The notes beneath the pieces were generated by a model. The model saw nothing but the letters and a program-made list of their open reading frames with translations. It did not search any database and was not told where the DNA came from. A stretch of DNA of 64,000 nucleotides from an uncultured Ruminococcus sp. Its GTDB lineage: Bacteria > Bacillota > Clostridia > Oscillospirales > CAG-272. Shown here in pieces: positions 28,006 through 30,631 of the stretch (the first letter of the stretch is position 1; the number at the start of each line of letters is the position of its first letter). The DNA is taken from the NCBI GenBank assembly GCA_902778725.1, contig CACYYS010000014.1, positions 418-64,417 of the forward strand, written 5' to 3'. A program made the position numbers and the translations under genes.

Positions 28006-28707
28006 CTACTTTTCTTCAGAAAAGTACGGCTTTTCTGAAGAAAAGTAGGAAGGCCAGACGAAGGTGGCGTTGAGGTCGTGCTCGCCGTTGTCGATCAGGA
28101 GGTTCTGTCCGGACATGGAGCGGTTCTCGAGGGTGAGGAAGAGGACCCAGTCCGCGACCTCGTCCGCCGTCATCCATTTTTTCATCGGGGTGACGGACAT
28201 GATCTTCTCCCAGGAGGCGGGGTCGCGCACGACGGGGTCGTTCAGGGGGGTGAGGACGCCGCCGAGGGAGAGAGCGTTGCAGGTCACGCCGCGGGGGGCG
28301 AGGCGGATCGCCACGTTCTTCATATATCCGACGACGCCGGCTTTGGCGGCGGCGTAGAGGGGGAACTCCTGGCCCGAGACGGCGGAGGCGGAAGCGTTGA
28401 AGAGGACCGAGCGCAGGGAGGGGGCGTTTTCGATGTACTTTTCCGTTACGTTTACCGTACCGGTGAGGTTGTTCCCGATATCGTCCGCGCTGTTCTGCGC
28501 GCCCGCGTTGTTGAAGAGGACGGCGACGTCGGGGATCTCCGGCAGGGAGGCGGGGTCCCGGATATCCGCCGTAAAGTGCCGGTAGCGGGGATGGGAGACG
28601 GAGGCGGGGGCGAGATCGATCCCGAACACGTCATGCCCGAGGGCGAGGAAGCGCTCGGCGGTCCGCGCTCCGATCCCGCCGGAGGCGCCGGTGATCACGA
28701 TGTTCAT
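28006..28707 (-). CDS. Classical short-chain dehydrogenase/reductase (SDR), predicted NAD(H)-preferring
   Basis: TGASGGIG, GID (acidic residue after beta2), NNAG, S...YAAAK, GQNLLIDNG. The ATG at 28707 overlaps the transporter stop. Confidence 0.92.
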   Translation of the reverse strand: MNIVITGASGGIGARTAERFLALGHDVFGIDLAPASVSHPRYRHFTADIRDPASLPEIPDVAVLFNNAGAQNSADDIGNNLTGTVNVTEKYIENAPSLRSVLFNASASAVSGQEFPLYAAAKAGVVGYMKNVAIRLAPRGVTCNALSLGGVLTPLNDPVVRDPASWEKIMSVTPMKKWMTADEVADWVLFLTLENRSMSGQNLLIDNGEHDLNATFVWPSYFSSEKPYFSEEK

Positions 28708-29426
28708 GCGTGCTTCCTCCTGTATTCCTCGCCTACTCCGTCGCGTTTCCACCGCTTGAGGACAAGGTAGCCGATGGGGGAGAAGACGATCTCCATCAAA
28801 AGCTCCAGTCCCGCGCCGAGCAGGGAACAGGTGAAGCACTGGAGGAGGGTCCAGGAGAACCCGTCCCAGAAGATGGGGGCAAAGACCGTGAAGGTCAGGA
28901 TCGCGAAGACGAAATTGTCAAAGAACTGCCCGATGAAGGTGGAGAGGTAGCTGCGGGTCACGTAGGCGAGCTTGCCGTCCGGGTTTTTGCGGAAGAGTTT
29001 GCCGATGCTCCAGTTGAGGAAGTTGTTGACAAAGGCGGAGAAGAGGAAGGCGACGGTGCTGCTGAGCAGGATGAACCAGGTGCCGCCGATGATGGAGTTG
29101 AAGGCGGTGTAATCCGTCTCGGTCGGGATGATGCTGACGACAAAAAAGATCAGGCAGACGAGGAGATTGACCCCGATGGCAAAGACGGAGAGTTTGGTCG
29201 CCGCCCGAGGACCGAAGGCCTTTGTGACGATGTCCATACAGAGGAAGGAGAGCCAGGATACGAGGATACCGCCGTCGATCGCCAGCCACCCGGACTGGTA
29301 GATGGTTTTGCTCGCGAGGATGTTCATCGTGACGACGGAGACGGTGAAGAGCGCAACGACGACGGCGGGGATGCTGTAAAAGAGCATTTTGGTGTCGGCG
29401 AGGGCGTTTTTCAGTTTTTCTTTCAT
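28704..29426 (-). CDS. VUT/YhhQ-family queuosine-precursor transporter
   Basis: NILASK, D.G...SWLSFLCMDIVTKAFG, SSTVAF, RSYLSTFIGQFFDNFVF; preQ1-like riboswitches upstream. Confidence 0.88.
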   Translation of the reverse strand: MKEKLKNALADTKMLFYSIPAVVVALFTVSVVTMNILASKTIYQSGWLAIDGGILVSWLSFLCMDIVTKAFGPRAATKLSVFAIGVNLLVCLIFFVVSIIPTETDYTAFNSIIGGTWFILLSSTVAFLFSAFVNNFLNWSIGKLFRKNPDGKLAYVTRSYLSTFIGQFFDNFVFAILTFTVFAPIFWDGFSWTLLQCFTCSLLGAGLELLMEIVFSPIGYLVLKRWKRDGVGEEYRRKHA

Positions 29427-29432
29427 TTCTTT

Positions 29433-29482
29433 CTCCTTGGTTTTGATTGATAAGGCGGAGGATTCAGAGGCCGAACTCCGCC
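29433..29482 (-). promoter_or_regulatory. preQ1-I-like riboswitch aptamer 2 (translational, overlaps the SD)
   Basis: GGCGGAG-UUCGGCCUCUGAAUC-CUCCGCC-UUAUCAAUCAAAACCAAGGAG, ending 6 nt before the ATG. Confidence 0.65.
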
Positions 29483-29493
29483 GGCGGAACCGG

Positions 29494-29535
29494 AAAAAAA
29501 CCGCCCTCAGCCGCCGGATGGCGCACTAAGGGCAG
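29494..29535 (-). terminator. Riboswitch-controlled terminator
   Basis: CUGCCCUUAGU...GCUGAGGGCGG followed by U7; the 5' arm can alternatively pair with ACUAAGGG of aptamer 1. Confidence 0.78.
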
Positions 29536-29551
29536 AGATATCCCGTTTGTT

Positions 29552-29607
29552 CCCTTAGTTTTGATCGCCGGATCGCTCCGGCCGGCAGGATGGTCACGAA
29601 CTGCCGG
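29552..29607 (-). promoter_or_regulatory. preQ1-I riboswitch aptamer 1 (transcriptional)
   Basis: CCGGCAG-UUCGUGACCAUC-CUGCCGG, an inserted CCGGA-GCGA-UCCGG hairpin, then AUCAAAACUAAGGG; matches the GUUCG..ACCAUCC / AAAACUA pattern of class I preQ1 aptamers. Confidence 0.8.
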
Positions 29608-29635
29608 ATCCGTACCGGGGTACGGAACAGAGGGT

Positions 29636-29664
29636 ATTGTAGCACGCGGGGGGAAAAAAGTCAA
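29636..29664 (-). promoter_or_regulatory. SigA promoter of the VUT-SDR operon
   Basis: TTGACT-N17-TACAAT with an extended -10 TG. Confidence 0.78.
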
Positions 29665-30631
29665 GAGGGATCTTCCGTCTTCCCGTCCAGCGCGGCGCGG
29701 ACCGCCTCCGTAAGCAGCCGGCGGCGCGGGCGTGCCCGCCGCCGCCGAAGGCGGCGCAGAGGTCGCTGACGTTCACGCTGCCGTCCGAGCGCAGAGAGAT
29801 CTTGAAGCTGCCGTCCTCCCCGTCCTTTTCCTTGATCGCGGCGGCGACCGCGACCCCGCGGACCGAGCGGACCGTATCGATGGCGGAGGAGAAATACTCG
29901 GCGGCGAGCGCGCCGCGCGCGGCGCGGTCGAGCAGGACGGCGCCGAAGCGTCCGCCGAGCAGCAGCCGGATGTTCTGCAGGGTGATGCGCTCCGCTTCCA
30001 GTTCCTCGGGGGAGCGGCTCTCAAAGAGGAGATGGTTGATCGCGGCGCCGTCGCACCCCGCTTCAAGCAGCCGGGCGGCGACGCGGTGGGTCTTTGCCGT
30101 CGCGTTGGAAAAGCGGAAGCAGCCGGTGTCCGAGGAGATGGAGAGATAGAGATCTTCCGCTATCCCGGCGGGCAGGTCGGAGAACCAGCCCTCTCCGCAG
30201 AGGATCTCCGCGATCTCAAAGACGATCTCGCCGACCGCGGCGGCCGAAGGGACGGTGCAGAAGTCGGAGAGACGCTCGCTCTTTTCGTGGTGGTCGAGCA
30301 TCAGGTCGATCTTCCCGTCAAAGAGGGGGAAGAGCTCGCCGAGCTGGGCGCGGGAAGCGACGTCCACGCAAACGACCGAGCGGTAGCGGGCGGGGTCGAT
30401 CCCGCCGGGGAGGAGGATCCGGTCCCGGATCAGGGGAGAGAGCGCCTCCGGCGGCTTGTCGGGCGCGGCGATCTCCGCCCCGCCGCCGAGCGCGCACAGG
30501 AGCTTTTTCAGCGCCATCGCGGAGCCGAGGGTGTCCCCGTCCGGCGAGGTGTGGCAGAGCAGGAGCGTGTCCCGCATCGAACAGAGGCGGTGCGCCGCCT
30601 CCGCAGGGGTGAGAGAGCGGAAGTCAGCCAT
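29661..30631 (-). CDS. nrnA: DHH/DHHA1 phosphoesterase (NrnA-like); 3' end frameshifted by an apparent small deletion
   Basis: HTSPDGD, DHH, SDTGCFRF, GGGGHARAAG; follows rbfA. A natural-looking tail LLTEAVRAALDGKTEDPS* (stop 29661) is in another frame; the ORF as assembled runs on to 29594. Confidence 0.82.

Follow-up and report, generated by a model that had tools for sequence, protein, structure and literature searches.

A stretch of 64,000 nucleotides from an uncultured Ruminococcus sp. (GenBank assembly GCA_902778725.1, contig CACYYS010000014.1, positions 418 to 64,417; hereafter the window, to which coordinates given without a locus name refer) carries a candidate operon in which an uptake protein and an enzyme of the short-chain dehydrogenase/reductase type (SDR) lie behind preQ1-type RNA sensors, an arrangement met repeatedly in bacteria of the rumen and gut and in their phages. 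The pair probably points to an enzymatic step in the recycling of the tRNA base queuosine that has not been described. Gene coupling, natural fusions, the phylogenetic profile, the phage context and a sister clade with another partner enzyme make the link to 7-deazaguanine salvage a strong one, and we lean, with modest confidence, towards a reading in which a 7-deazaguanine derivative is imported and then processed by the SDR for use by Tgt. Microbes and their hosts exchange queuosine as a micronutrient, and the catalogue of its salvage enzymes and transporters is still growing (PMC11130926).

The operon lies on the minus strand and begins with a sigma-70-type promoter at 29664-29636 (TTGACT-17 nt-TG-TACAAT, 10 of 12 matches), which was the sole such site in 2.1 kb where shuffled sequence gave an expectation of 0.3. 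Downstream of a structured leader, a transporter of the VUT/QPTR family (240 aa, 29426-28704, Pfam Vut_1) is followed by a classical SDR of the NAD(H) type (233 aa, 28707-28006, Pfam adh_short and adh_short_C2), and the ATGA at 28707-28704 is common to the VUT stop and the SDR start. An intrinsic terminator at 27944-27914, with a 12-bp stem containing 7 G-C pairs and then a T run, closes the operon. The promoter, both genes, their overlap and the terminator all agree with the two-gene operon proposed in an initial annotation of this DNA.

All SDR searches were run with a 221-aa version of the protein, from which 12 non-conserved C-terminal residues were left out. A scan of species-representative genomes returned 52 SDR orthologues with 48-88% identity, their titles naming mostly rumen and gut metagenome-assembled genomes (MAGs). 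A VUT gene was situated immediately upstream on the same strand at 49 of the 52 loci, the remaining three being interrupted by contig ends, and this adjacency holds to about 41% VUT identity. The 4-nt start/stop overlap was present at 32 of 48 evaluable loci. No third conserved gene was found beside the pair, the flanking genes varying by lineage. Natural fusions with an N-terminal VUT and a C-terminal SDR formed five protein clusters (466-546 aa), some with a low-complexity linker. The linkage of SDR orthologues to VUT genes, and the position of these operons behind preQ1-I-like leaders, had both been predicted in the initial annotation and were borne out.

A related set of modules was recovered from metagenomes by scanning with the exact core of the second leader motif (motif 2, described below), with 80 loci listed of at least 120. 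Among the listed loci with enough sequence, a VUT gene was downstream in 73 of 77 and QueT in three, with one unclear. The three leaders preceding QueT were those of L171, L190 and L199 (200-780), the protein of L199 scoring 155 bits on Pfam QueT. Of the 55 listed loci with at least 1.5 kb downstream, where the second gene could be read, 40 had the SDR in that place, 14 had an amidase-signature enzyme (PF01425, 282-328 bits) and one had QueT standing alone. Three of the 14 amidases were fused to the VUT in proteins of about 710 aa (L185, 1652-3781; L205; L206), and the others were separate genes beside it (L156, L160, L161, L162, L175, L187, L197, L211, L226, L227 and L232). The amidases matched no NCBIfam equivalog at its cut-off. 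In a VUT tree, rooted at its midpoint only, the amidase-linked transporters formed one group of 17 rows (SH-aLRT 91), within which a clade of 16 had a support of 100, and the partner label changed twice compared with 16.5 times in shuffles. Since the amidase-linked VUTs are monophyletic, transporter and partner enzyme diversify together.

Orthologues of the SDR were also detected on 57 viral contigs (37-53% identity), with a VUT in 51 and directly upstream of the SDR in 34. Three groups of phage loci were distinguished. In group A (about 14 loci), VUT, SDR, QueF-like, QueC, QueD-like, QueE-like and FolE genes follow in this order, the QueF-like gene being present in nine, and DpdA-like genes occur elsewhere in the genome in 5/5 sampled records. 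At the 18 loci of group B, the pair is adjoined by a DnaN-like gene and a DpdA-like one (phrog_887, 72.9 bits). Group C (about 18 loci) consists of phages of about 45 kb that carry the pair within the replication module; contigs of this kind are L108-L111, L114, L117-L120, L122-L125, L127-L129, L131, L133 and L147. Motif 2 precedes the VUT gene in eight phage loci. Some phages are known to encode YhhQ (Hutinet et al. 2019, PMC6884629). The near-constant adjacency, the overlap of reading frames, the repeated fusion, the retention of the pair by phages and the amidase sister clade speak for an enzyme whose substrate is what the transporter brings in.

The queuosine gene content of 43 carrier genomes was set against a sample of the class. 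The window genome has tgt and queA, together with a QueG-like gene under the cut-off, and contains no QueC, QueF, QueH or QueT. The co-occurrence with tgt and queA that the initial annotation had expected is evident among the carriers (tgt in 40/43, queA in 41/43), and absence of tgt from the genome, which would have spoken against its proposal, was not observed. QueH is present in 24 of the 43 and a QueG-like gene in 17, and jointly they cover 39; on this count a role of the SDR as epoxyqueuosine reductase was ruled out. The QueG-like gene encodes a short iron-sulfur protein, found in the window genome (G000:C33:7856-8506, L089) and 16 other carriers, and the proteins of these 17 carriers score 65-171 bits against the TIGR00276 cut-off of 200. 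Its occurrence in carriers that mostly have no QueH suggests a divergent epoxyqueuosine reductase.

Genuine queC was found in 0/43 carriers, the top match reaching 31.7 bits; matches up to this score were judged to be PP-loop cross-matches, genuine QueC scoring 190-290 bits in the class sample. Genuine queF was likewise found in 0/43, and two apparent carrier QueF matches proved to be FolE in a folate operon (244 bits on GTP_cyclohydroI). A single VUT is present in 42 of the 43 carriers and a second VUT in one. QueT occurs in 7/43 carriers compared with 107/150 class-sample genomes, so that carriers stand out by lacking QueT, and for 36 of the 43 carriers, with their tgt and queA, no other precursor transporter is recognised. 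Judged by gene content, carriers are predicted to make queuosine from preQ1 on tRNA, to be unable to make preQ1 and mostly to have no other known importer, and the pair is predicted to fill this gap in their queuosine metabolism.

The leader was folded from the promoter to the start codon (214 nt) and gave a minimum free energy of -90.1 kcal/mol, compared with -71.0 +/- 4.7 for shuffles (z = -4.05). It contains two preQ1-I-like aptamers in tandem, which upholds the preQ1-like leader of the initial annotation in structure; Rfam calls no preQ1 riboswitch there. No Rfam family reached its gathering score anywhere in the window, and the RF00522 gathering threshold (39 bits) was reached in none of 35 related loci. 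Aptamer 1 (29607-29551) is type-I-like, as judged from its sequence and from orthologous leaders. Its 7-bp P1 pairs 29607-29601 with 29588-29582, the loop reads UUCGUGACCAUC and the A-rich tail AAAACUAAGGG, and an inserted 14-nt hairpin (29581-29568) separates P1 from the tail. The 12-nt loop is identical to that of the orthologous L051 leader, which has the same loop and tail and no insert, and which gives a full-length match to RF00522 at 21.4 bits (E 0.022), under the gathering score of 39. The tail AAAACUAAGG of the window leader agrees with the Rfam consensus, and the insert-bearing layout recurs in L001 and L002, the two closest relatives. A leader terminator (29535-29494), recognised from the minimum free energy fold and the sequence, has a 10-bp stem and then U7. 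Its 5' arm could alternatively pair with the aptamer 1 tail (CUAAGGG with CCCUUAG), and the two elements would then be arranged as is typical of transcriptional OFF switches.

Aptamer 2 (29484-29428), referred to as motif 2 and not mentioned in the initial annotation, is a conserved preQ1-I-like variant defined from two alignments (A2 and A4) and a covariance model (R1). It has a 7-bp P1, a 15-nt loop UUCGGCCUCUGAAUC and, closing a long A-rich tail, the sequence AAAACCAAGGAG; the loop is nearly invariant, with the consensus UUCGGCCUCUAAAUC. In the window, as in 37 of the genome loci, it is positioned directly 5' of the start codon. In A2 (33 sequences), compensatory changes affect 2/7 P1 pairs (14 cells), a score reached by 0/500 shuffles. 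In A4 (74 distinct sequences, including phage and metagenome copies), double-sided changes were seen in 6/7 pairs, in an alignment fitted to the motif 2 model, which favours structure. The loop CUCU is complementary to the GGAG of the Shine-Dalgarno sequence (29436-29433) and almost invariant, with no double changes; as CUCU and GGAG are both invariant, P2 is neither supported nor contradicted. Columns invariant in A2 are the UU after the P1 5' strand, the UC before the P1 3' strand and the tail AC, positions that are described as type-I preQ1-I hallmarks and ligand contacts (PMC11625349, PMC8752633).

Model R1 scores 77.2 bits on the window and also matches, at 28 bits, a canonical preQ1-I aptamer directly before QueT in the unrelated genome G077; therefore, motif 2 and preQ1-I RNAs are related. 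Like type-I preQ1-I (RF00522), motif 2 is a small hairpin with an A-rich tail and the UU, UC and AC positions, adjoins or overlaps the Shine-Dalgarno sequence, and precedes transporters of queuosine precursors. It differs in the loop, which is 15 nt rather than about 12, in a linker about 10 nt longer and in a tail with C for the U of CUA; window aptamer 1 differs from preQ1-I in its 14-nt hairpin between P1 and the tail. Motif 2 is thus a candidate divergent preQ1-I subtype missed by current models, and would be expected to bind preQ1. Tandem motif copies were also found in L225 (1717-1840) and in the phage loci L126 (6895-7113), L134 and L092 (6930-7212), and since the upstream copy of L126 has its own terminator, expression platforms of the motif class are of two kinds, transcriptional and translational. 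One phage copy matched the Rfam family cow-rumen-4 weakly, at 14.6 bits (E 8.7) where the gathering score is 48.5, and this was taken as chance.

The transporter matches Pfam Vut_1 (PF02592) at 86 bits, with a gathering threshold of 27.2, over profile positions 1-152 of 152. It is a distant member of the QPTR family, and transport of preQ0, preQ1 or queuine is predicted. E. coli QPTR carries preQ0 and preQ1, QPTR and QueT transporters elsewhere function without a partner enzyme (PMC11130926), and yhhQ has been described under the control of a preQ1-type riboswitch (PMC11625349). The clade shares with QPTR proteins (YhhQ/COG1738, among them E. coli YhhQ for preQ0 and preQ1 and C. trachomatis QPTR for queuine) the Pfam family, the preQ1-type control and the occurrence in salvage-dependent genomes. 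It differs in being paired or fused with an SDR, or with an amidase in the sister clade, a pairing absent from the accessible text of published QPTR descriptions.

The features that the initial annotation had read from the single SDR sequence are general in the family. Across 36 orthologues the catalytic S/Y/K triad (S106 or S108, Y118, K122) is invariant, as are Asp31 after beta-2, the TGxxxGxG cofactor motif, NNAG, the Glu-Phe-Pro before the catalytic Tyr and a C-terminal Phe-x-Trp. The TGxxxRIG of FolM/PTR1 is missing, as had been noted: the window protein reads TGASGGIG, and in the orthologues G, S, K or R occupies the preceding residue, with R never at the TGxxxRIG position itself. There is no conserved cysteine among the 36. 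An acidic residue ending beta-2 indicates a preference for NAD(H), and Asp31 indicates NAD rather than NADP as the predicted cofactor. QueL has a radical-SAM (S-adenosylmethionine) domain; a Pfam search found no Radical_SAM match in the transporter or the SDR, and no QueF domain in the SDR, which carries SDR domains only. The protein is a standard SDR of the alcohol/ketone type, and its AlphaFold2 model had a mean pLDDT of 95. Foldseek aligned this model to classical SDRs with TM 0.84-0.87, the matches being generic ones such as L-2-keto-3-deoxyfuconate 4-dehydrogenase and EntA (21-30% identity), and for this reason the substrate cannot be inferred from structure. Clusters of a protein atlas that hold the SDR are named just 'SDR family', and one of them is entirely viral. 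Two orthologues with 76% identity, P0121 (485 aa) and P0122 (480 aa), have a C-terminal class II aldolase/AraD-like domain (Aldolase_II, 171 bits), which could be a genuine fusion or read-through into a neighbouring gene.

Taken together, these features are best read as a preQ1-repressed, self-contained salvage module for a queuosine precursor, with transcription running from the promoter at 29664-29636 through both aptamers. With ligand bound, aptamer 1 would sequester the CUAAGG tail, the leader terminator would form and expression would be off; the aptamer 2 loop would fold onto the Shine-Dalgarno sequence with the same outcome. With ligand scarce, the divergent QPTR/VUT and the translationally coupled NAD-dependent SDR would be produced. 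The VUT would import a derivatised 7-deazaguanine, the SDR would turn this cargo into preQ1 for Tgt on the cytosolic side, and QueA followed by QueG/QueH would complete queuosine on tRNA. Across this VUT clade, what is imported would in the end serve Tgt or DpdA as substrate.

Queuine is preQ1 bearing a cyclopentenediol on its amine. We tentatively propose, in agreement with the idea of the initial annotation, that queuine is the substrate and that the SDR acts as an NAD+-dependent oxidative releaser of preQ1, doing without radicals what QueL does with them. On our own reasoning, NAD+ would oxidise queuine at its allylic hydroxyl to a gamma-amino enone, which would pass into its imine tautomer, and hydrolysis of the imine would give preQ1 and a reductic-acid-type dione. 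Such an oxidation appears chemically plausible and would fit the amidase-linked sister modules as well as the invariant Asp31. From an N-acyl derivative, preQ1 could in a similar way be set free by an amidase, so SDR and amidase could each strip the substituent from an N-substituted preQ1. It is conceivable, if still doubtful, that such an unmasking accounts for both partner enzymes and for the feedback by preQ1. Equally speculative is the idea that these SDRs and amidases belong to a broader family of unmasking enzymes not yet described, coupled or fused to the transporter in rumen and gut bacteria and in phages that feed DpdA, yielding preQ1 from N-substituted 7-deazaguanines and controlled throughout by the preQ1-I subtype that present models overlook.

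Several results weigh against the proposal that the SDR prepares imported 7-deazaguanines for Tgt, or against its details. None of the computed evidence singles out queuine as the substrate. No preQ1 family was found by Rfam in 29380-29720 even at E <= 10, and RF00522 had zero matches across the whole 85%-complete genome; because neither window aptamer is recognised by Rfam, preQ1 is a ligand that we infer. One bacterial VUT-SDR subclade (L044, L045 and L048) has a short leader after the promoter with no recognisable riboswitch. The transporter scores 45.8 bits against TIGR00697, the NCBIfam 'queuosine precursor transporter' equivalog, under the cut-off of 50.95, and its identity to E. coli YhhQ is 22% over 123 residues. 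The SDR has generic relatives, its best NCBIfam match being 87 bits against a cut-off of 270 and its best PDB match 63 bits. In group C phages, phrog_887 had no match in 5/5 sampled records. The 43 carriers are mutually related MAGs that may be incomplete and that span more than the background class. Genuine QueC is present in just 9/151 class-sample genomes, and the missing de novo genes consequently carry no signal; the anticorrelation with de novo synthesis expected in the initial annotation was dropped as evidence against this class background.

Part of this evidence would suit a module unrelated to queuosine, in which the VUT imports a purine, pterin or vitamin that the SDR processes and the variant RNA senses: the sub-threshold TIGR00697 score and distance from YhhQ, the absence of motif 2 from Rfam, and the five of five sampled 45-kb phages that have the pair and no DpdA-like match. 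We consider this rather improbable, given that in the window and in L051, L001 and L002 this operon follows type-I-like preQ1-I aptamers, that motif 2 precedes QueT and keeps the preQ1-contacting positions, that phage pairs lie within queF-queC-queD-queE-folE clusters or beside DpdA-like genes, and that for 36/43 carriers, with their tgt and queA, no other precursor transporter is recognised. To our knowledge, there is no precedent for the reduction of a nitrile by an SDR. Such a reaction would be required if the SDR were a non-orthologous replacement of QueF, reducing the nitrile of preQ0 imported by the VUT, or an imine intermediate, to preQ1. This would explain why genuine QueF is missing in 43/43 carriers and in the window genome, and why an NAD(P)-dependent oxidoreductase is found beside a transporter of the QPTR family, whose E. 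coli member transports preQ0 and preQ1 (PMC11130926). However, Asp31 indicates NAD(H), whereas QueF uses NADPH (PMC11625349), and the absence of a conserved Cys in the 36 orthologues excludes a thioimide route like that of QueF. In nine phage loci, moreover, the SDR is directly beside a QueF-like gene (113 bits), so the two are not alternatives there, and the amidase of the sister modules cannot reduce a nitrile. A QueF replacement is on these grounds quite unlikely.

The VUT might also import preQ1 itself, with the SDR as an accessory that traps or recycles a side product, detoxifies an analogue or serves an unrelated co-regulated redox need. QPTR and QueT work alone elsewhere (PMC11130926), motif 2 stands before QueT alone at three listed loci, and the SDR has no specific family assignment, all of which an accessory enzyme would accommodate. 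We nevertheless regard this as unlikely, since an accessory would hardly account for near-obligate adjacency (49/52, to about 41% VUT identity) with overlap at 32/48 loci, for repeated fusion into one polypeptide, for a pair kept by phages, or for a whole sister clade with a different, hydrolytic partner.

If queuine is indeed the cargo, the module of SDR and VUT would resemble the C. difficile QueK/QrtT-QueT/QueL system, in which the queuosine base is imported, preQ1 is regenerated for canonical Tgt and the transporter is clustered with the enzyme (bioRxiv 10.1101/2023.12.05.570228; PMC11130926). It would differ in that the enzyme is a 233-aa NAD-type SDR without a radical-SAM domain, the transporter is a VUT and not an energy-coupling factor (ECF) S-component, and no nucleoside hydrolase is linked. 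Among three loci with two adjacent QueT genes, the one annotated contained no QueK-QueT-QueL cluster. The phage pairs compare with the known clusters for 7-deazaguanine DNA modification (FolE, QueD, QueE, QueC, QueF, DpdA and sometimes YhhQ), inside or beside which they are found in 32 cases among the 57 viral loci. None of the described Dpd/Que proteins corresponds to the SDR partner, and the available text of PMC6884629 never mentions 'dehydrogenase'. No description of an SDR or amidase tied to queuosine salvage or QPTR was found in a literature search that had the supplementary tables S2 and S3 of PMC11130926 and those of a Bartonella preprint outside its scope.

New here are a candidate enzyme activity and, in the leader, aptamers that occur naturally in tandem and include a divergent subtype of preQ1-I. 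The pair is abundant: it was found at 52 loci in genomes and on 57 phage contigs, and its leader motif on at least 120 metagenome stretches. Most carrier genomes have no other recognisable route to a precursor. If SDR and amidase regenerate preQ1 from finished or derivatised bases, the way queuosine flow is modelled for rumen and gut communities would need revision, the reaction of QueL would have a second solution independent of oxygen and of SAM, and it would be explained how phages without biosynthetic genes supply their DNA-modifying transglycosylases.

At its upstream end the operon runs into a neighbouring gene. The promoter sits within the 3' end of an open reading frame for a DHH/DHHA1 (NrnA-like) protein (29594-30631, minus strand), which extends 39 residues past its last domain and across the promoter. 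The TGA stop of this frame falls in the aptamer 1 loop, and read-through transcripts from that gene would therefore also carry the riboswitches. At the other end, an AT-rich hairpin at about 28050-28007 overlaps the final codons of the SDR.

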